Positions 2,251 through 40,557 of a stretch of DNA of 64,000 nt are shown here, in pieces. Location: positions 1 to 64,000 of IMG/VR virus record IMGVR_UViG_2595698399_000001; one strand, written 5' to 3'. Under the pieces are notes generated by a model. The model did not search any database and was not told the origin of the DNA. It saw only the letters and a program-made list of their open reading frames with translations. The DNA comes from a virus (lineage: Duplodnaviria > Caudoviricetes). Every line of letters begins with the position of its first letter. Within the stretch, counting starts at the first letter, position 1. A program made the position numbers and the translations under genes.

Positions 2251-3816
2251 TTACTGGTTAAACACAACCACCGCTTCTGTGGTCAAGAATGTACCTACTA
2301 CTGAGGCAGCGTTCTCTAAAGCACATCTAGTAACCTTAACTGGGTCAATAATACCTGCCTCAATCATATCAACTAGGTCGCCACTTCTGACATCTACACC
2401 TATTCCTTTAGCAATGTGAGGCTTGTACTCAATTCCGGCATTATTAAGAATAGCCTCTATAGGTGCAATTGCCGACTCTAATACAGAGAGGTATCCAAGA
2501 GAGAATGCGTCTTCTAAGTCTTCGCTTTTATAAGCTCCAAGAACTTCTGCAGATGCATTTGCTAAAGCAACTCCTCCACCTGAAACAATTCCTTCTTCTA
2601 GGGCAGACCTTGTAGCATTAATACTATCCTCTACTCTATCTTGCTTCTCCTTCAACTCACTATCGGACTTTGCCCCTACATAAATAGTAGCTACGCCTCC
2701 TGTTATTCTAGATAACCTTTCTTGAAGGTCTTTCTTATCGAAAGTGTTTTCGGTGATTTTAATCTTCTTTTTAATCTCCTCGATAAGGTCAGATAAGTTA
2801 TCGCTATCTCCTACTAATAAGGTATCTCTGTCAGACATTACTGCCCTTTTAAGTTTGCCTAGTACTCCGGTAGATAATTTAACTCCCTCTACTTCTGAAA
2901 CAACCTTCGCTCCAGTAAGTGTTGCAATATCTCCTAAAAGATCTCTTTCAATCTTAAGAATCTGTGGAGACTTAACTACGCAAATCCTTCCTTTAAGAGG
3001 CCCGTTTGAGTTCTCTACTAAGTTACCTAATGTAACTGGGTCAATATCGTCTGTTATAATCAATAACTTGTTCTTAACAGAGGAGAATACTTGCTTTAGG
3101 AAGTTTGCAGTAACGTCTCCCTTCTCTAACTTACCCTTGTGAAGTAATACAAAAGTGTCCTCTAGCTCACAAACGTCTGTAAGGTTATTAGTCACAAATC
3201 TTGGGTGGTAATACCCTCTATCGAGTACAACACCGTTACGCATCTCTACATAACTTTCCGCTGTATCGGACACTGACGAAATAACTGTACCATTCTCACC
3301 TATCTTACTAAATGCCTTAGATACAATTTCTCCTATAACCTTATCTCCGTTTGCAGAGATAGTAGCGACACTCTTTAAGTTCTTTTTAGAAACTTTAGTA
3401 GAGTTGTTCCTCAACGTTTTAACCAAGTCTTCTACAGCCTTGTCTAGGCCTTTCTTGTACTCTGTTACCGACATATTACTGTCTTCCTTAAGCACTTTAA
3501 AACCTACATTAAATAAGTCTTGAGCTATTACTGTAGCGGTGGTTGTTCCATCACCTGCTTGTGAATTAGCTCTACTTGCAGCCTCCTTAATCATAGACGC
3601 CCCTATATTCTCGAAAGGGTCTTTAGGGGTTACAGTCCTAGCTACAGAGACTCCATCTTTAGTTACAGTATAAACTAATTGTCCATCTTTATTTGCAGGA
3701 ATGATTACATTGCGTCCAGACGCACCGAGAGTTACCTTAACGGCATCTGCAACAGTATCTACCCCTCTTTTAAGCGCCTCTCTTGAATCTAATCCGAACT
3801 TAATTGTTGTACTCAT
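2251..3816 (-). CDS. groEL: phage chaperonin GroEL (Cpn60)
   Basis: AVKVTLG, TKDGVSVA, AGDGTTTATV, EEGIVSGGG, GIIDPVKV motifs; lacks the GGM tail. Confidence 0.97.
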   Translation of the reverse strand: MSTTIKFGLDSREALKRGVDTVADAVKVTLGASGRNVIIPANKDGQLVYTVTKDGVSVARTVTPKDPFENIGASMIKEAASRANSQAGDGTTTATVIAQDLFNVGFKVLKEDSNMSVTEYKKGLDKAVEDLVKTLRNNSTKVSKKNLKSVATISANGDKVIGEIVSKAFSKIGENGTVISSVSDTAESYVEMRNGVVLDRGYYHPRFVTNNLTDVCELEDTFVLLHKGKLEKGDVTANFLKQVFSSVKNKLLIITDDIDPVTLGNLVENSNGPLKGRICVVKSPQILKIERDLLGDIATLTGAKVVSEVEGVKLSTGVLGKLKRAVMSDRDTLLVGDSDNLSDLIEEIKKKIKITENTFDKKDLQERLSRITGGVATIYVGAKSDSELKEKQDRVEDSINATRSALEEGIVSGGGVALANASAEVLGAYKSEDLEDAFSLGYLSVLESAIAPIEAILNNAGIEYKPHIAKGIGVDVRSGDLVDMIEAGIIDPVKVTRCALENAASVVGTFLTTEAVVVFNQ

Positions 3817-26782: not shown

Positions 26783-26805
26783 CTTTATTGTTTTGTGATT
26801 ATTAG

Positions 26806-27164
26806 TGGAGGCGGAGGGAATCGAACCCTCGTCCAGAGCACTTAATCGTTAATGTTTTATACAGCTTTTGCGTAGTATCGTTACACACGGCATTTCTTTA
26901 GACTCTTTATGCTAGAGGGGCCAACCATAGTTATGATTGAAGCTCCACCAAACTGTTTTGAGAAAACAGATAAAACGGTCAGCTTATACCCCTACTGCTA
27001 CTTCAAGGTTAAGGATAGCGTTTACCGCTTCCATATTAGCTTCGATCTGTGCGTTTACCGCATTCGTGTTGTTTCCGTTTAAAGAATTTCACCTTAGTTT
27101 GTGCAGTTATCTCTCTGCGCTGAACATTAACGACTGTTATACCCTGTCAAAACCAGTCGCCCCC
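26806..27164 (-). ncRNA. ssrA: tmRNA (SsrA); predicted tag GNNTNAVNAQIEANMEAVNAILNLEVAVGV* (26984-27076)
   Basis: 5' GGGGGCGACTGGTTTTGACAG, 3' GGACGAGGGTTCGATTCCCTCCGCCTCCA; G3.U70 alanine identity pair; TAAAC|GGA resume context. Confidence 0.92.
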
Positions 27165-28584: not shown

Positions 28585-28604
28585 GACTAGTTTGTATTAA
28601 TTAG

Positions 28605-28676
28605 TACTCTCTATAGGATTCGAACCTATGTTTTTCGGATGAAAACCGAATGTCCTTACCGCTAGACGAAAAGAGC
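28605..28676 (-). tRNA. tRNA-Glu(UUC), copy A
   Basis: GCTCTTT/AGAGAGT, TTCGG-TTTTCAT-CCGAA, ATAGG-TTCGAAT-CCTAT. Confidence 0.9.
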
Positions 28677-30554: not shown

Positions 30555-30574
30555 CTCTTAAATTTTAATATTAG

Positions 30575-30646
30575 TACTCTCTATAGGATTCGAACCTATG
30601 TTTTTCGGATGAAAACCGAATGTCCTTACCGCTAGACGAAAAGAGC
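30575..30646 (-). tRNA. tRNA-Glu(UUC), copy B (identical to copy A)
   Basis: Base-for-base identical to 28605-28676. Confidence 0.9.
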
Positions 30647-35061: not shown

Positions 35062-35208
35062 ATGATTACATTTTTAGTAGGAGTATTGGCCGGAGCGGCA
35101 GGCTTCGCATTAATCTTGAAGAACAACCCTAAATTACAAGCATATTTCAATAGTGCTGCAGACGAGTTGGAGCGAAAGATTGAAGAAAAAACCGGAAAAG
35201 ACATCTAA
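35062..35208 (+). CDS. small membrane-anchored protein (48 aa, MITFLVGVLAGAAGFALILKNNPK..., YtxH-like)
   Basis: Read manually; upstream TATATTTG box at ~35027. Confidence 0.55.
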   Translation: MITFLVGVLAGAAGFALILKNNPKLQAYFNSAADELERKIEEKTGKDI

Positions 35209-35227: not shown

Positions 35228-35263
35228 TAAGTTTTTTTATATCAAAAAAAAGTTGTATATTTG
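35228..35263 (+). promoter_or_regulatory. tRNA array 1 promoter (repeat copy 1)
   Basis: TAAGTTTTTTTATATCAAAAAAAAGTTGTATATTTG; Bacteroidota -7 box TAnnTTTG; repeated at 36705 and 37947. Confidence 0.8.
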
Positions 35264-35282
35264 TATCAAAGCAATAAGATCG

Positions 35283-35360
35283 ATGAAAACAATTATGAAC
35301 ATAGCGACAGATATTAGAACCAAGGGAGTGAAACTCTTGGGGAGGAGCCGTGTACTATAA
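35283..35360 (+). CDS. attenuator leader peptide 1 (MKTIMNIATDIRTKGVKLLGRSRVL)
   Basis: 16 of the first 17 codons are M/K/T/I/A/D/R/G/V, the amino acids of tRNA array 1. Confidence 0.8.
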   Translation: MKTIMNIATDIRTKGVKLLGRSRVL

Positions 35361-35388
35361 TTTCTTTAGATATAAGATGTTTATTACA

Positions 35389-35415
35389 GCCCTCCCCTAA
35401 AAAGGAGGGTTTTTT
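35389..35415 (+). terminator. attenuator terminator 1
   Basis: GCCCTCC/GGAGGGT stem plus U-run, 3 nt before tRNA-Ala; leader GGGGAGG can pair with CCTCCCC. Confidence 0.85.
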
Positions 35416-35418
35416 ATT

Positions 35419-35493
35419 GGGGCTGCATGAACCAAGGCAAGGCGACTTTGATTTGCAATCAGAGTGAGATGGGTTCGATACCCATGAGTTCCA
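35419..35493 (+). tRNA. tRNA-Ala(UGC)
   Basis: Loop TTTGCAA, GGGGCTG start with G3.U70, ATGGG-TTCGATA-CCCAT. Confidence 0.8.
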
Positions 35494-35521
35494 CAATAAG
35501 ATCCCTTACTGACACCAAATT

Positions 35522-35594
35522 GCCCTTGTAGCAAACAGGTTGTAGGCAACCGTCTTTTAAACGGTGGGGCTAGGTTCGATTCCTAGCAGGGGCA
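35522..35594 (+). tRNA. tRNA-Lys(UUU)
   Basis: ACCGT-CTTTTAA-ACGGT; GCCCTTG/CAGGGGC. Confidence 0.9.
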
Positions 35595-35643
35595 CATAAG
35601 TAAATTAGCTTATATAATGGATTATAAGCGAATAAGGTAATAT

Positions 35644-35716
35644 TGGAGTATAGCTCAGCGGTTAGAGCACTCCCCTGATACGGGAGATGTCGTAGGTTCG
35701 AAACCTTCTACTCCAA
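35644..35716 (+). tRNA. tRNA-Ile(GAU)
   Basis: CTCCC-CTGATAC-GGGAG; TGGAGTA/TACTCCA. Confidence 0.9.
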
Positions 35717-35804
35717 CGAGGCGGAAGACTACCGAAAGAAGGAAAAAGGAAAAAAGTTGGACTAAGAGATTGTTTTTACCTCAACTCTATAAAAAGAGGA
35801 ATTT

Positions 35805-35877
35805 GCGTAAGAGGCCATAGTGGAATGGCGCCTGCCTTCCAAGTAGGAGATAGCGAGTTCGAACCTCGTCTTACGCT
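35805..35877 (+). tRNA. tRNA-Gly(UCC)
   Basis: CCTGC-CTTCCAA-GTAGG; GCGTAAG/CTTACGC. Confidence 0.9.
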
Positions 35878-35887
35878 CTTTTAAAAT

Positions 35888-35956
35888 TGTGGGTGGTCGT
35901 GGTGACCAGAGGGCCTCATAAGTCCTTATAGATGGGTTCGACTCCCATACCCGCCA
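35888..35956 (+). tRNA. tRNA-Met (or Ile2) (CAU), atypical short D-arm
   Basis: AGGGC-CTCATAA-GTCCT; 1:72 mismatch; ATGGG-TTCGACT-CCCAT. Confidence 0.7.
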
Positions 35957-36031
35957 CAAAAGTCGTTTCTACACTCTTCGGGATAAAGGGTGTTCGTACG
36001 ACACTCGGCAGTTAATCGACATCTGCCAACT

Positions 36032-36108
36032 GGTCTAATAAGCGTGTTTGGTAACACGAATTGCACTGTCACTGCTCTAAAACGAGGGTTCGAATCCCTC
36101 TTAGACCG
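36032..36108 (+). tRNA. tRNA-Asp(GUC)
   Basis: GCA-CTGTCAC-TGC; GGTCTAA/TTAGACC, G73; GAGGG-TTCGAAT-CCCTC. Confidence 0.8.
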
Positions 36109-36118
36109 CTTTAATTAT

Positions 36119-36192
36119 GCACTAATGACTGAATAGGAAATGGTACTTCATTTGTAACGAAGATAATTCGGGTTCGACTCCTGATTAGTGCT
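36119..36192 (+). tRNA. tRNA-Thr(UGU)
   Basis: Loop TTTGTAA; GCACTAA/TTAGTGC. Confidence 0.85.
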
Positions 36193-36401
36193 CAACATAC
36201 TTAATCCGCCTATCGAGAAGTTTTGAAGCGCATTAGATTAAGTGTTTTCTGAAAAAGGGGCTTAGCGAATACTAGATATCGTTAACAAAGGCCCCTTTTT
36301 ATTTATCAGGATAAAAGTATTGTAATGGAGTTTTGAGTTATGGAAATAAGCTTCTCCACGTTAAAAACAAAAAAGTAGGTGTAGTAATATGCTTACCATA
36401 T

Positions 36402-36475
36402 ACCAGATTAGCTCAGCGGTTTAGAGCAGCTCTTTTACAAGGAGAAGGTCGATAGTTCGAATCTATCATTTGGTA
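36402..36475 (+). tRNA. tRNA-Val(UAC)
   Basis: Loop TTTACAA; ACCAGAT/ATTTGGT; canonical D-arm. Confidence 0.88.
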
Positions 36476-36536
36476 CGACAGTACCTACCACACTTCTAGG
36501 AGAACGTCTCAAAGTGTCCAAGGGTAGGTCTTTTTT

Positions 36537-36607
36537 ACCTCTATAGTTTAAAGGAAGAATACGGCGCTTCTAACGCTATGGTCGGGGTTCGAATCCCTGT
36601 AGAGGTT
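36537..36607 (+). tRNA. tRNA-Arg(UCU)
   Basis: GGCG-CTTCTAA-CGCT; ACCTCTA/TAGAGGT. Confidence 0.88.
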
Positions 36608-36612
36608 CTTAT

Positions 36613-36683
36613 TGGAGTAAGCCTAGGTAGGTTAGCACGTCTTATATGCGTGTGGAGATGGGTTCGATTCCCTCTATTCCAAC
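36613..36683 (+). tRNA. tRNA-Ile(UAU), atypical D-arm
   Basis: CACGT-CTTATAT-GCGTG; TGGAGTA/TATTCCA; GGTTCGATTCC. Confidence 0.65.
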
Positions 36684-36704
36684 TATTTATAAAATAAAAA
36701 GATA

Positions 36705-36740
36705 TAAGTTTTTTTATATCAAAAAAAGTTGTATATTTAC
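36705..36740 (+). promoter_or_regulatory. tRNA array 2 promoter (repeat copy 2)
   Basis: TAAGTTTTTTTATATCAAAAAAAGTTGTATATTTAC directly before the leader ATG. Confidence 0.8.
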
Positions 36741-36743
36741 AAT

Positions 36744-36833
36744 ATGAAAACAAACATGACATACAATAATTTCTCTTGGTATTCGAATTGTAGCTTTAGT
36801 AGCTATAATGTCGAGAGGTTGTACTTGTCTTAA
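36744..36833 (+). CDS. attenuator leader peptide 2 (MKTNMTYNNFSWYSNCSFSSYNVERLYLS)
   Basis: Codons 7-22 are exclusively Y/N/F/S/W/C, the amino acids of tRNA array 2. Confidence 0.85.
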   Translation: MKTNMTYNNFSWYSNCSFSSYNVERLYLS

Positions 36834-36882
36834 AAATATATTCATTTCTTTTATTAATTTTTGATTATTAATTTTGATTTTT

Positions 36883-36917
36883 ACCCTCTTGGTCTTTCAT
36901 AGCTAGGAGGGTTTTTT
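36883..36917 (+). terminator. attenuator terminator 2
   Basis: ACCCTCTTGGT/GCTAGGAGGGT stem plus U-run before tRNA-Tyr; leader GTCGAGAGG can pair with CCTCTTGGT. Confidence 0.85.
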
Positions 36918-36930
36918 GTTTTTTATAACT

Positions 36931-37012
36931 TGCAACGTAAAGCTAGTGGTTCTAGCAGGCTGTCTGTAAAACAGTTCTTGAGAGGGGAGTGGTTCGATTC
37001 CGCACGGTGCAA
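36931..37012 (+). tRNA. tRNA-Tyr(GUA)
   Basis: GCTGT-CTGTAAA-ACAGT; long variable arm. Confidence 0.85.
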
Positions 37013-37019
37013 CAATAAT

Positions 37020-37109
37020 GGAAGAGTAAGCCAAGTAGGTCTACTGGTCGCTGTCTTGAAAACAGTTGGGGTTTAAAAGCCCGTGTGGGTTCGAGCCCCA
37101 CTTCTTCCG
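37020..37109 (+). tRNA. tRNA-Ser(UGA)
   Basis: GCTGT-CTTGAAA-ACAGT; long variable arm; G73. Confidence 0.9.
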
Positions 37110-37114
37110 CATTT

Positions 37115-37199
37115 AGAGAGGTGTCTGAGTGGCTTAAGGTACTACTTTGCTAAAGTAGTGGGGTTAACGCCTCCGAGGGTTCGAATCCCTTCTTCTCTA
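37115..37199 (+). tRNA. tRNA-Ser(GCU)
   Basis: CTACT-TTGCTAA-AGTAG; long variable arm. Confidence 0.9.
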
Positions 37200-37208
37200 C
37201 AAACACAC

Positions 37209-37280
37209 GGCTAGGTAGCTCAGAGGAAGAGCAGGCGCCTGTTAAGCGTCAGGTCGAGATATCGTAATTCTCCCTAGCCT
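37209..37280 (+). tRNA. tRNA-Asn(GUU), non-canonical T-loop
   Basis: GGCGC-CTGTTAA-GCGTC; GGCTAGG/CCTAGCC; T-loop ATCGTAA. Confidence 0.85.
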
Positions 37281-37287
37281 CTTTAAT

Positions 37288-37359
37288 ATGTCTCAGCATA
37301 AGGTATGCAGTCGGTCTCCAAAACCGTACATGGACAAGGTTCGATTCCTTGGGGGCGTG
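37288..37359 (+). tRNA. tRNA-Trp(CCA)
   Basis: CGGT-CTCCAAA-ACCG; CAAGG-TTCGATT-CCTTG; G73. Confidence 0.85.
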
Positions 37360-37439
37360 CAATAAAACAACAGAGCATCCTATAATGTAAAGGAGCCGCC
37401 ATAAAATCCGAGAGAAGGTCTTGGCTGTTGTTTTTTAAT

Positions 37440-37512
37440 GCGTTAGAAGCTAACTTGGTAGAAGCACTGGCTTGAAATCCCAGAGGAGTAGGTTCGATTC
37501 CTACCTATCGCA
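37440..37512 (+). tRNA. tRNA-Phe(GAA)
   Basis: Loop TTGAAAT in a CTGG/CCAG stem; GTAGG-TTCGATT-CCTAC. Confidence 0.85.
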
Positions 37513-37517
37513 CTTAT

Positions 37518-37589
37518 ATCGGAGATCCTGACGGAGAAGGGGCCTGTCTGCAAAACTGCGCTATACCGGTTCAATTCCGGTCTCCGATT
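37518..37589 (+). tRNA. tRNA-Cys(GCA)
   Basis: Loop CTGCAAA; ATCGGAG/CTCCGAT; U73. Confidence 0.8.
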
Positions 37590-37640
37590 CTTATGTTTGT
37601 ATTTTTCGTACCTTTACTACTTAACGTTAAACAAACAACA

Positions 37641-37934
37641 ATGAGAAGAACTACAAGAAAAACTGTGCCAACTAATAAAACTGCGCCTAAGAAAAACGTA
37701 ACAATCAAATCTGATAAGAGTAGTGTTGCAAGTACCAAGGCTAAAAAATACACTGTTAAGACAAGTGGCAAGCTTAAGAAAGAAGAAGAAGCTAGAGGAA
37801 CTAGGGGTCGTAATGACGCCAATAGATCTGCAGCCTTTAAGAAAGATGTAGAGAAGGCCGGAGGTATGAGTGCATATACTAAGAAATTAACTGATGCAAA
37901 GAAGAGGGTCAAGAAGAATCCAACAAGAATCTAA
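37641..37934 (+). CDS. highly basic Lys/Arg/Thr-rich protein (start probably MRRTTRK)
   Basis: Part of ORF 37593..37934; ATG after A-rich AAACAAACAACA and a TACCTTTA box. Confidence 0.6.
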   Translation: MRRTTRKTVPTNKTAPKKNVTIKSDKSSVASTKAKKYTVKTSGKLKKEEEARGTRGRNDANRSAAFKKDVEKAGGMSAYTKKLTDAKKRVKKNPTRI

Positions 37935-37946
37935 TATAAAACAGTA

Positions 37947-37983
37947 TAAGTTTTTTTATATCAAAAAAAAGTTGTATATTTAC
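37947..37983 (+). promoter_or_regulatory. tRNA array 3 promoter (repeat copy 3)
   Basis: TAAGTTTTTTTATATCAAAAAAAAGTTGTATATTTAC directly before the leader ATG. Confidence 0.8.
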
Positions 37984-37986
37984 AAT

Positions 37987-38076
37987 ATGAACGTAACGCT
38001 ATTACATCAAGAGCCCTTAGAACAACTTCGATTACCATCGAGGGTGCCTTATTATGGGATTGATGAACTATCATAG
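37987..38076 (+). CDS. attenuator leader peptide 3 (MNVTLLHQEPLEQLRLPSRVPYYGIDELS)
   Basis: Codons 5-17 are exclusively L/H/Q/E/P/R, the amino acids of tRNA array 3. Confidence 0.85.
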   Translation: MNVTLLHQEPLEQLRLPSRVPYYGIDELS

Positions 38077-38100
38077 TTTACAACGCACAATATCCTATTA

Positions 38101-38136
38101 AGAGCCCCTTTGGTATAAACCATTGGGGCTTTTTTT
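38101..38136 (+). terminator. attenuator terminator 3
   Basis: AGAGCCCC-TTTGGTATAAACCATT-GGGGCTTT plus U-run 4 nt before tRNA-Pro; leader 38038-38062 is complementary to 38088-38113. Confidence 0.85.
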
Positions 38137-38140
38137 ATTT

Positions 38141-38212
38141 CGAGTAGTGACAAAATTGGCACGTGCCGACCTTGGACGTCGGAGAATGCAGGTTCGATCC
38201 CTGCCTACTCGA
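38141..38212 (+). tRNA. tRNA-Pro(UGG)
   Basis: CCGAC-CTTGGAC-GTCGG; CGAGTAG/CTACTCG. Confidence 0.9.
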
Positions 38213-38221
38213 CTTTGATTT

Positions 38222-38296
38222 GCTATCGTCTTCTAAATGGAATAGGAATCCACCCTTTCAAGGTGTGCAATGCGAGTTCAAGTCTCGTCGATAGTA
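38222..38296 (+). tRNA. tRNA-Glu(UUC), distinct sequence from copies A/B
   Basis: CACC-CTTTCAA-GGTG; GCTATCG/CGATAGT. Confidence 0.88.
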
Positions 38297-38342
38297 CGAA
38301 GGTTGTTTGCTAGTATCTCCCAACAAAGTAGAAACTAGACAT

Positions 38343-38414
38343 TGGAGTATGATGTAACGGTTAGCATGACTGGTTTTGAGCCAGTTCGTCGGGGTTCGAA
38401 TCCCTGTACTCCAT
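38343..38414 (+). tRNA. tRNA-Gln(UUG)
   Basis: ACTGG-TTTTGAG-CCAGT; TGGAGTA/TACTCCA. Confidence 0.9.
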
Positions 38415-38425
38415 CTTATAAGAGT

Positions 38426-38499
38426 CCTCCGTTGCGCCAAATTGGAAAGGCGGTCAAGCTGTGAACTTGATTACATGGGTTCGATTCCCATACGGTTGT
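38426..38499 (+). tRNA. tRNA-His(GUG), mismatched acceptor stem
   Basis: TCAAG-CTGTGAA-CTTGA; ATGGG-TTCGATT-CCCAT. Confidence 0.75.
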
Positions 38500-38538
38500 C
38501 CAACACGGGGTAGTGTCATAATGTCATACCCCTTTTAT

Positions 38539-38621
38539 GCCGGAGTGAGTAAAAAAGAGAATGGCAGATCATTGGGTCTTAGAAACCCAGACTTTTGGGG
38601 GTTCGAATCCCTCCTCCGGTA
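38539..38621 (+). tRNA. tRNA-Leu(UAG), atypical (short variable arm, long D region)
   Basis: TGGGT-CTTAGAA-ACCCA; GCCGGAG/CTCCGGT; A73. Confidence 0.75.
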
Positions 38622-38630
38622 CTTATTAAT

Positions 38631-38713
38631 GCATCCATGGTGGAAAGGGCTATACACTACAGGCTTAAAACCTGTCGCCGAAAGGATTGGGGGTTCGAAT
38701 CCCTCTGGATGCA
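38631..38713 (+). tRNA. tRNA-Leu(UAA)
   Basis: ACAGG-CTTAAAA-CCTGT; long variable arm; GCATCCA/TGGATGC. Confidence 0.9.
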
Positions 38714-38720
38714 CTTTCAC

Positions 38721-38792
38721 ACTTCTATAGCTTAACGGAAAAGCGTTCCGCTACGAACGGATAGATTGGGGGTTCGAATCCCTCTAGAAGTT
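38721..38792 (+). tRNA. tRNA-Arg(ACG)
   Basis: TCCG-CTACGAA-CGGA; ACTTCTA/TAGAAGT. Confidence 0.9.
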
Positions 38793-38800
38793 CTTAAACA

Positions 38801-38832
38801 AAAAAAGCCATCTAATTAAAGGTGGCTTTCTT
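38801..38832. terminator. terminator closing tRNA array 3 (probably bidirectional)
   Basis: AAAAAAGCCATCT-AATTAA-AGGTGGCTTTCTT. Confidence 0.7.
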
Positions 38833-38853
38833 ATTTTCAACTGGTGGTTGGTG

Positions 38854-39006
38854 CTAGGCTAATTTGGATTTGCCCCTAATTTTAAAAGATAGGGCATCCT
38901 TCACCTTGCTATTTTTTCGTTTATAAACTCGAGCAGTCGAATCTTCTTTCTTAGAATCCAACTTACTATTCTTCTTACTTTCTATTTTATGGTCTTTATA
39001 TCTCAT
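38854..39006 (-). CDS. small basic protein (50 aa, MRYKDHKIESKKNSK...IRGKSKLA)
   Basis: Read manually; converges on the 38801-38832 terminator. Confidence 0.4.
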   Translation of the reverse strand: MRYKDHKIESKKNSKLDSKKEDSTARVYKRKNSKVKDALSFKIRGKSKLA

Positions 39007-39843: not shown

Positions 39844-40557
39844 ATGGATAATAAGAAATACGTAGCATACTACAGGGCGTCGACAGAAAGCCAAAGAGAT
39901 GGAATAGGTCTAGAAGTTCAAAAGAGTTCGGTAGAGGCGTTTGTTAAGTCTTACGGCGGAACTATAGTAGAAGAGGTTAGCGAGATAATCTCGGGTGGGG
40001 CCCAAGTTCGAGAAGGATTTGATAAGGCATTAGAACTTTGTAAGAAACACTCTGCGGTATTACTGGTTCACCGCATAGATAGATTATCTAGAGCAGGGTT
40101 TATGACCATAGCAAAGCTAGAGGAGAAGGGTGTTCCTTTTATAGAAGCTGATTCACCTCACGATAGCGAGTTCTCTAAAAACATCAAGTTCTTAATTGCT
40201 AAAGAAGAAAAAGATAAAACTCAGAGAAGGGTAAAAGACGCCTTAGGCCAGATAAAGGCCAATATAGAATCTGACGGATACCATATTACTAAAGCCGGTG
40301 ATCGAATCACTTCTTTAGGCAACCCTCAGAATCTCTCTGATATGGCCAGAGAGCGCTCTAAAGTAATTAGAAAGGCAAAGGCCATTGCTAACGAGAACAA
40401 CCGTAGAGCGTACGCTATGGCATCTAGAATGAAGTCTAACAAGAGTACTTTAAAGCAGATAGCAGATTACCTTAATAAAAACGGATTTGAAACATCTAAA
40501 GGAAATAAATTTTACCCAATACAAGTAAGCAACTTAATCAAATTATATGAAAACTAA
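39844..40557 (+). CDS. serine recombinase (resolvase-type catalytic domain with C-terminal DNA-binding helix)
   Basis: YVAYYRASTESQ (catalytic Ser), EIISG, IDRLSR, TLKQIADYLNKNGFETSKG. Confidence 0.9.
   Translation: MDNKKYVAYYRASTESQRDGIGLEVQKSSVEAFVKSYGGTIVEEVSEIISGGAQVREGFDKALELCKKHSAVLLVHRIDRLSRAGFMTIAKLEEKGVPFIEADSPHDSEFSKNIKFLIAKEEKDKTQRRVKDALGQIKANIESDGYHITKAGDRITSLGNPQNLSDMARERSKVIRKAKAIANENNRRAYAMASRMKSNKSTLKQIADYLNKNGFETSKGNKFYPIQVSNLIKLYEN

Follow-up and report, generated by a model that had tools for sequence, protein, structure and literature searches.

A candidate leader-peptide attenuator ahead of a seven-gene tRNA array in a Cellulophaga-type phage

Leader-peptide attenuation is a textbook mechanism for controlling genes that make or charge amino acids. 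The attenuators that govern amino acid operons include the his, trp, leu and pheA leaders as well as multivalent ones, exemplified by the Escherichia coli ilvGMEDA leader and the thr leader. T-box RNAs control synthetase and amino acid genes; they bind uncharged transfer RNA (tRNA) directly through one specifier codon, and no ribosome is involved. Arrays of tRNA genes are also carried by phages (vibriophage, T5 and mycobacteriophage), where they are thought to offset codon mismatch, degradation of host tRNAs or defences that cleave tRNAs. Here we describe a locus at which the genes under such control appear to be tRNA genes. It lies on the plus strand of a 64,000-nucleotide (nt) stretch of viral DNA, which we call the window, and it consists of a promoter-like repeat, a 29-codon open reading frame (ORF), a terminator and an array of seven tRNA genes (unit 3, positions 37947-38829). 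We judge it likely, from sequence and folding models, that unit 3 is a ribosome-mediated (leader-peptide) transcription attenuator, and that each tRNA operon of this phage senses the decoding of its own tRNAs' codons.

The proposed element resembles classical leader-peptide attenuators in several respects. A short ORF with regulatory codons lies close to the promoter, ribosome stalling is predicted to allow read-through of an intrinsic terminator, and the mutually exclusive antiterminator has a 5' strand that the translating ribosome would occlude. An attenuation model has been presented for the pheA leader (PMC3082878). The phage unit is most like the ilv and thr leaders, in that more than one amino acid would be sensed. 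Unlike the classical attenuators, it would control tRNAs and not biosynthetic enzymes or synthetases, its product would decode the sensor directly, and the phage leaders sample six to nine amino acids plus every isoacceptor of the operon, each once or a few times and in no long runs. The element is also viral, belongs to a Bacteroidota host and has no sequence relation to the Rfam leader families. No Rfam amino acid leader family (His, Thr, Leu, Trp or Phe) was found in the window at gathering score, and the only leader-family row in the E-value search was Phe_leader on the minus strand (38798-38856; 19.8 bits against a gathering score of 55, E = 6.2).

Like a T-box, the unit would read the status of specific tRNAs and, through an antiterminator, decide whether a terminator is read through; unlike a T-box, which does neither, it would regulate tRNA genes and employ the ribosome. 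No T-box covariance-model match was found in the window in either the gathering-score or the E-value search. In mycobacteria, leaderless poly-Cys short ORFs are reported to be cysteine-responsive attenuators (bioRxiv 10.1101/834739). They resemble the phage leader in that the transcript opens with a short regulatory ORF whose codon content sets the signal; the mycobacterial system responds to one amino acid and serves protein-coding operons, and leaderless initiation in the phage is suggested by a 4-nt spacing described below. Like other phage tRNA sets the one studied here is phage-borne, and over its three arrays it covers all 20 amino acids; unlike those sets as they have been described, its expression appears to be conditional on demand.

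A full-text literature search, with subscription journals largely outside it, returned no description of leader-peptide or attenuator control of tRNA genes or of phage tRNA arrays. What is new in the proposed system is the choice of tRNA genes as the target, the self-referential logic, the division of 20 amino acids over three leaders and the viral Bacteroidota setting. A Phe-rich leader at the E. coli tRNA-Phe genes pheV and pheU, considered as a possible precedent, was dropped; the K-12 sequence upstream of both genes holds a promoter only.

Architecture and codon content of unit 3

The window makes up most of a 72,534-nt virus record, which encodes a portal, a terminase, a DNA polymerase and a primase-helicase of phage type. 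Among public sequences the closest to it is Cellulophaga phage Calle_1 (Pervagoviridae); nucleotide identity is 95% across the tRNA region, and the portals are 98% identical. The genome is that of a 72.5-kb, Cellulophaga-type phage. On the plus strand, positions 35228-38829 hold three units of the same build, in each of which a 35-nt promoter-like repeat is followed by one short ATG-initiated ORF, a G+C-rich hairpin with a run of T residues, and a cluster of tRNA genes. The parts of unit 3 are as follows.

37947-37981, plus strand: promoter-like 35-nt repeat, from repeat comparison
37987-38076, plus strand: leader ORF, ATG at 37987, 29 codons and then a TAG stop at 38074-38076
37999-38037, plus strand: regulatory codons 5-17, of which 13/13 encode Leu, His, Gln, Glu, Pro or Arg
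38026-38043, plus strand: small hairpin in minimum free energy folds, spanning the end of the regulatory codons and the first part of the antiterminator strand
38033-38062, plus strand: antiterminator 5' strand (segment 2), which falls on codons 16-26 of the ORF
38088-38114, plus strand: antiterminator 3' strand (segment 3), overlapping the terminator 5' arm at 38100-38114
38100-38136, plus strand: intrinsic terminator, with an interrupted stem at 38100-38133 (-20.6 kcal/mol) and seven T's at 38130-38136
38141-38793, plus strand: tRNA array of seven genes, Pro to Arg
38141-38213, plus strand: tRNA-Pro (TGG), tRNA call
38222-38297, plus strand: tRNA-Glu (TTC), tRNA call
38343-38415, plus strand: tRNA-Gln (TTG), tRNA call
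38426-38502, plus strand: tRNA-His (GTG), tRNA call
38539-38622, plus strand: Leu-TAG-like gene, low score (20.8 bits against a gathering score of 29)
38631-38714, plus strand: tRNA-Leu (TAA), tRNA call
38721-38793, plus strand: tRNA-Arg (ACG), tRNA call
38804-38829, plus strand: terminator-like hairpin closing the array, from the hairpin scan

The promoter-like repeat of unit 3 has a 100% identical copy at 35228-35262 and another at 36705-36739 that is one A short. Its 16-mer core occurs three times in the window, where 0.29 occurrences are expected, and the 11-mer core GTTGTATATTT occurs three times in the entire 72,534-nt genome, at the three units only. The TATATTTA box of unit 3 occupies 37975-37982, and 4 nt separate its end from the leader ATG; either this box or a TATATTTG box stands 4 nt before the ATG in most units. 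We take the TATATTTA box to match the Bacteroidota -7 consensus TAnnTTTG. Given this spacing and this presumed match, the ORF would probably be translated from a leaderless or almost leaderless mRNA. The leader ORF is the sole ATG ORF from the promoter repeat to the terminator.

The initial annotation of this locus, made from the sequence alone, held that codons 5-17 of the leader use only amino acids carried by the array, and the 13 codons are indeed present as it listed them. They comprise five Leu codons (three TTA, one CTA and one CTT), two Gln (both CAA), two Glu (GAG and GAA), two Pro (CCC and CCA), one His (CAT) and one Arg (CGA), so that both Leu codon families are represented, as had also been claimed. 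The same annotation contrasted the Arg codons of two units, and this contrast stands as well: the leader of unit 3 has CGA, which fits Arg-ACG, whereas that of unit 1 has AGA (35316-35318), which fits Arg-TCT. Each of the seven downstream tRNA species has at least one cognate codon among codons 5-17, and under standard wobble rules the array would read 11 of the 13 regulatory codons. The array itself was described as Pro, Glu, Gln, His, Leu, Leu and Arg. Six of these genes are borne out, and the seventh, for Leu-UAG, is in this phage only a low-scoring tRNA-like sequence. ARAGORN makes no TAG-anticodon call at 38539-38622, even with relaxed thresholds; in relatives, relaxed thresholds suffice for a Leu-TAG call on the homologous genes, and in Maribacter phage Panino and IMG/VR contig G001 the call is also made by default.

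Such a run of matching codons is not readily produced by chance. The probability of at least 13 consecutive in-set codons in a 28-codon ORF is 4.5e-7 with coding codon usage and 7.5e-6 with the frequencies of all triplets in the window. When the window is searched on both strands for ATG ORFs of 15-45 codons, 420 in all, the leader of unit 3 has the longest in-set run for its amino acid set, and the runner-up reaches 11. The two sibling units, which bear on the same point, are arranged as follows.

35228-36683, plus strand: unit 1, with promoter repeat 35228-35262, leader ORF 35283-35360, terminator 35388-35411 plus T-run, and tRNA genes
35419-36683, plus strand: unit 1 tRNA genes, for Ala (TGC-like), Lys, Ile (GAT), Gly, Met, Asp, Thr, Val, Arg (TCT) and Ile (TAT)
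36705-37590, plus strand: unit 2, with promoter repeat 36705-36739, leader ORF 36744-36833, terminator 36883-36912 plus T-run, and tRNA genes
Up to 37590, plus strand: unit 2 tRNA genes, for Tyr (GTA), Ser (TGA), Ser (GCT), Asn, Trp (CCA), Phe and Cys (GCA)

The leader of unit 2 contains 16 consecutive in-set codons (codons 7-22), the next best ORF in the window reaching nine. In the leader of unit 1, for whose set the background is 0.53, the longest run is 11 (tied), and 15 of codons 2-17 are in the set, the single exception being Asn at codon 6. When the three leaders are set against the three tRNA sets, the runs on the diagonal are 11, 16 and 13 and those off the diagonal are 1-3; the leader of unit 3 gives three for the set of unit 1 and two for that of unit 2. 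Multiplying the three run probabilities yields 4e-18 to 2e-16. All 22 of the 22 tRNAs called in the window have a cognate codon in their own leader.

Together the three arrays represent all 20 amino acids, if relaxed ARAGORN calls and two degenerate tRNA-like genes are counted. Six tRNA-like genes fall below the default ARAGORN and Rfam thresholds: the low-scoring Ala-TGC-like gene that opens the unit 1 array (35419-35494), Ile-TAT (36613-36683), the Tyr (36931-37013), Trp (37288-37360) and Cys (37518-37590) genes of unit 2, and the Leu-TAG-like gene of unit 3 (38539-38622). Four of the six are called at relaxed thresholds: Ile-TAT in unit 1 and all three in unit 2. The Ala-like and Leu-TAG-like genes appear degenerate in the window, and their homologues are called at relaxed thresholds (in Panino and contig G001 also at default ones). 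The 20 amino acids are divided roughly by the first base of the codon, with unit 3 mostly C, unit 2 mostly T and unit 1 A or G; the exceptions are Glu, Asn, Ser-AGY and Leu-TTA. From the last tRNA gene of unit 2 to the promoter repeat of unit 3 there is a Lys-rich ORF of 113 codons (37593-37934, plus strand), whose Calle_1 homologue is annotated as a structural protein. Given its position, this ORF would be co-transcribed with unit 2.

Predicted dependence of the terminator on ribosome position

The terminator of unit 3 was missed by a simple hairpin scan because of its internal loop. It ends 4 nt before the start of tRNA-Pro (38141), and therefore no space is left from terminator to tRNA for a separate promoter. 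The initial annotation had also pointed out that 38038-38062 is complementary to 38088-38113 and that the latter overlaps the 5' arm of the terminator. We can corroborate both statements, with a pairing energy of -19.9 kcal/mol and an overlap at 38100-38114. Left free, the RNA from 37982 to 38140 folds into a leader hairpin and the terminator, at -40.1 kcal/mol (z = -4.1; none of 200 shuffles was as stable). The small hairpin at 38026-38043 belongs to this fold of the free RNA, in which segments 1 and 2 pair (the 1:2, or anti-antiterminator, fold), and a hairpin occupies the equivalent position in most other leaders. It may act as a pause hairpin for RNA polymerase.

To model the effect of a ribosome, the RNA was folded as it would be before the 3' arm of the terminator exists, with a mask running from the ATG to 12 nt beyond the codon in the P site. 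With P-site codons 6-10, 14 of the 15 nt of the terminator 5' arm are sequestered in the folding model, at about -27 kcal/mol; with codon 14 in the P site the figure is 9 of 15, and with codon 18, codon 22 or the stop it is zero. Pairing of 38033-38062 with 38088-38115 thus carries -19 to -27 kcal/mol when the P site is at or before codon 14 and is lost at codon 18 and beyond. When the upstream part of unit 3 was given 300 dinucleotide shuffles, the same positional switch arose in 5 of them, and in none with equal stability. The switch was position-dependent in all 23 of the 23 leaders folded (9/9 analysed in detail and 14/14 further ones), again in silico. In unit 2 of the window, where the antiterminator strand comprises codons 23-25, the switch therefore comes later, at codon 22, and there is also clear 1:2 pairing between regulatory codons and antiterminator strand. 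An antiterminator strand that begins just past the regulatory codons and within the ORF is, as modelled, the geometry of a stall-dependent attenuator.

The terminator stems vary from unit to unit and the upstream complementary strand varies along with them; in a matrix of duplex energies, a terminator's own upstream strand ranked top of nine for five of nine terminators. Between the window and Calle_1, unit 3 has seven differences from the ATG to the terminator loop and eight across the aligned stretch, and the antiterminator is retained (-26.5 versus -26.9 kcal/mol). The structural parts of homologous leaders are nearly invariant.

Each sequence-level prediction of the attenuator proposed in the initial annotation therefore holds up computationally, namely the ORF, the matching codons, the terminator and the position-dependent antiterminator. 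The features that define an attenuator are found at this locus as a short ORF, cognate codons, a terminator, an antiterminator that excludes it in silico, and conservation that tracks the array. The model that we favour would operate as follows. Transcription would begin at the promoter-like repeat, with the leader ATG only a few nucleotides further on, and a ribosome would translate the 29-codon leader close behind RNA polymerase, with codons 5-17 sampling each downstream tRNA species (Pro, Glu, Gln, His, both Leu isoacceptors and Arg-ACG). If decoding is prompt, the ribosome would reach codons 16-26 and the stop, stripping 38033-38062 of its pairing, and the terminator would form and halt transcription before tRNA-Pro. 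If a charged tRNA is scarce, the ribosome would stall upstream, 38033-38062 would pair with 38088-38114, the terminator arm would be sequestered and the array would be read. Leader translation and regulated read-through are predictions of this model, which also presumes the start site, the coupling of ribosome and polymerase, the efficiency of the terminator and the physiological signal.

The expected outcome is negative feedback, with the operon on when the decoding activities that it supplies run short and off once they are restored. Since the products decode the sensor, such feedback would come from the phage's own tRNAs together with the host pool. The trigger that makes tRNAs limiting could be codon mismatch, host shut-off or defences that cleave tRNAs. 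With each sensor decoded by the same tRNAs whose genes it controls, the system would form a direct feedback loop on decoding capacity. If the model is correct, it would explain how large phage tRNA arrays are controlled and would offer a testable link between phage tRNAs and host tRNA depletion or anticodon-nuclease defences. It would also mean that ribosome-coupled attenuation operates in Bacteroidota, probably on leaderless transcripts, and it would provide a compact natural means of sensing how available an individual tRNA is.

Recurrence of the design in other phages

The same design recurs in Calle_1 (three units), Panino (two), Tenacibaculum phage Gundel_1 (Pachyviridae; two) and Cellulophaga phage phi4:1 (Lightbulbvirus, 146-kb genome; three), the last of which we take to be a myovirus. 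It is also present in contig G001, in metagenomic contigs L133, L135, L138, L139, L143, L145 and L148, and in two contigs (L171/L174 and L173) of a Lacinutrix metagenome-assembled genome (MAG; Flavobacteriaceae). For Calle_1 (L001), annotation coordinates run about 52 nt below the sequence positions of the same tRNAs, and sequence positions were used. Judged by sequence, the phages that carry the design are far apart: the portals of Panino and Gundel_1 are 34% and 25% identical to that of the window, and phi4:1 is not among 84 portal matches.

Across these relatives the leader peptides vary in residue order and length, and their codons remain within the set of their own array. The in-set comparison drew on leaders of Panino, G001, L133, L135, L138, L139, L143, L148, L174, phi4:1 and Gundel_1. 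Codons 4-13 fall within the set at 99 of 100 positions in leaders of the unit 1 type (10 leaders; background 0.53), at 25 of 30 in the unit 2 type (three leaders; background 0.24) and at 68 of 70 in the unit 3 type (seven leaders; background 0.27). The seven leaders of the unit 3 type, from Panino, G001, L138, L139, L143, L174 and phi4:1, differ in sequence and keep the amino acid set. The fetched DNA includes the arrays of 18 leader-array units, with 130 tRNA genes; for 120 of these genes a cognate codon occurs among codons 2-18 of the unit's own leader, the start codon not being counted, and in units of the unit 3 type all 55 of 55 are covered. The genes missed are eight Met-CAT and two Val-TAC, and some of the Met-CAT genes may be Ile2 tRNAs. 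The second array of Gundel_1 has a different composition (Pro, Gln, Met-CAT, Asn and Leu), and its leader includes four Asn codons and an ATA codon as well as one unexplained His codon. A protein-coding gene is inserted in this unit, between the second terminator and its array.

The leader-terminator-array modules of phi4:1 (L161), Gundel_1 (L131), Panino (L002), L173 and L174 have the same tRNA order. Because this same-order module is present in phages whose portals are unrelated or 25-34% identical, the sequences suggest that the whole leader-terminator-array cassette moves horizontally.

In the Panino-like clade, the unit 1 leader starts at, or a few nt from, the stop of a conserved gene for a membrane peptide of about 40-50 codons, and in G001 it overlaps the stop codon of that gene. 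These leaders have no promoter of their own close upstream, and they may be translated by coupling. The arrangement is seen in L002 (4269-4499), L129 (reverse strand), L133, L138, L143 and L174; the homologue of the membrane-peptide gene in the window lies at 35062-35208.

Searches were run by short sequence and by structural pattern. Scanning viral contigs for a 14-mer of the promoter core gave 117 stretches, nearly all of them chance matches that lack tRNAs. A 22-mer from tRNA-Leu and a related-locus search with the 180-residue structural protein each returned the Calle-like contig only. The structural pattern of unit 3 returned 10 chance matches without tRNAs in addition to L003. With the unit 1 pattern, 14 stretches were retrieved from metagenome contigs, of which six were true (L135, L138, L139, L143, L145 and L148) and eight were chance matches without tRNAs; viral contigs yielded L133, L134 and L006, and genome contigs one true match (L171) and nine chance matches without tRNAs. 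There were two tRNA matches for MW202828 and one for elemoA, and Cellulophaga phage phi18:3 has no annotated tRNA within the 42 kb examined.

A broader proposal, which we put forward tentatively and rate as rather doubtful when taken as a whole, joins demand-driven tRNA supply, leaders that act as OR-gates, replacement of limiting tRNAs and a horizontally moving module. Each leader would be an OR-gate over 7-10 tRNA species, and between them the leaders would monitor the decoding of all 20 amino acids. Just the tRNAs that run short in the infected cell, be it from host tRNA shutdown, codon mismatch or host defence nucleases that cleave tRNAs, would then be replaced by the phage, which would halt once supply is restored. 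The promoter-leader-terminator-array module would pass between unrelated phages of Flavobacteriia (a Pervagoviridae podovirus, Pachyviridae, phi4:1 and unclassified phages).

Alternative explanations and neighbouring features

The attenuator could be real and its signal a different one, with each leader serving as a generic speedometer for overall translational capacity or amino acid starvation. Charged tRNA would drop in the same way whether the tRNA or the amino acid is scarce, and the mixture of six to nine amino acids in each leader is reminiscent of the multivalent ilv and thr leaders. Yet a device of this kind would have no need of three leaders with disjoint codon sets, each fitting its own array, nor of Leu, Ser, Ile and Arg isoacceptor families placed in the matching unit. 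It does not predict that Asn codons shift together with the Asn tRNA in Gundel_1, and extra tRNA gives no relief from amino acid starvation. For these reasons we regard a general starvation signal as improbable, even though it is the strongest of the competing explanations.

Two further explanations dispense with leader translation as the sensor, and we give very little credence to either. The leader RNA might sense tRNAs without translation, in the manner of a T-box or a codon sponge, or the hairpins might be processing or stability elements beside an incidental ORF. The region is highly structured, as the z score of the free RNA shows, and tRNA-Glu genes without a leader likewise stand behind terminator-like hairpins. 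Against this, the codons are contiguous, in one frame from ATG to stop and, in most units, at a fixed distance from the promoter box; substitutions among relatives preserve membership of the amino acid set, which is a property of a reading frame; and no T-box or other Rfam cis-regulatory family was found at gathering score. It is just as hard to credit that the ORFs arose by chance or encode small functional peptides, with the hairpins as constitutive leaky terminators that damp a strong promoter. Short ORFs are plentiful in the window, as the comparison set attests, and one unrelated ORF reaches a run of 11 for the unit 3 set. The joint probability of the three runs is nevertheless about 1e-16, composition is conserved where peptide sequence is not, and the antiterminator was placed where ribosome position matters in every leader folded.

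The interpretation of unit 3 as a ribosome-mediated attenuator also has observations standing against it. Its support is computational throughout, leader translation and regulated read-through being predicted, and it needs tight coupling of transcription and translation in Bacteroidota. Two of the regulatory codons, CCC and CTT, need four-way wobble by U34. Out-of-set codons exist, such as the Asn in unit 1 of the window and a single Ser or Tyr in relatives. Only one to five codons represent each tRNA, with no long homopolymeric runs as in the his or pheA leaders, and for this reason sensitivity to any single tRNA may be low. Two tRNA-Glu genes elsewhere in the window also lie behind terminator-like hairpins and have no leader ORF, and thus a terminator just before a tRNA gene is not diagnostic by itself. 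The design is not universal: such leaders are absent from the 123-kb phage contig G002 (L130), with its 28 dispersed tRNAs, and from a chromosomal tRNA cluster in the Lacinutrix MAG.

Several results of the folding work weigh on the same side. In eight of nine leaders the antiterminator also forms when the truncated RNA is folded with no ribosome on it, and therefore read-through would be the default when translation is absent, unlike in the trp leader. For most leaders the energy of arm involvement was no better than that of shuffled sequences, 8 to 146 of 200 shuffles matching or beating it, and this measure was replaced by the position-specific switch test. Covariation between units is only moderate, because many terminators have a common GGAGGG core.

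RNA libraries from five runs in two studies, available as assembled contigs only, cover most of the region, leaders and arrays included. In X2 and X4, a contig of about 100 nt (37962-38060/38065) has a word depth of 2432 and 2356, against 275 and 283 for tRNA contigs and 511 and 982 for the upstream ones. Positions 38066-38127 are covered by none of the contigs listed for X2 and X4, gaps between contigs being uninformative. Since the depth of RNA contigs cannot rank the parts of a gene, gaps prove nothing and contigs break at the 35-nt repeat, these data were excluded as evidence.

Other features of the window are located away from the three units. The additional tRNA-Glu (TTC) genes are on the minus strand within two 77-nt copies (28600-28676 and 30570-30646) that are 100% identical and 1,970 nt apart, which brings the tRNA-Glu genes of the phage to three when that of unit 3 is counted. 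The copy that was read lies directly behind the terminator-like hairpin of an upstream gene. A phage transfer-messenger RNA (tmRNA) gene at 26803-27164 (minus strand, 87.6 bits) has an unusual tag of 22 residues; in Panino and in contig G001 the tmRNA is within the tRNA region. The phage also encodes a GroEL-like chaperonin at 2251-3816 (minus strand; PHROG 5725, E = 2.6e-162), and 1 kb past the tRNA region, at 39844-40557 (plus strand), lies the gene for a serine recombinase or invertase.

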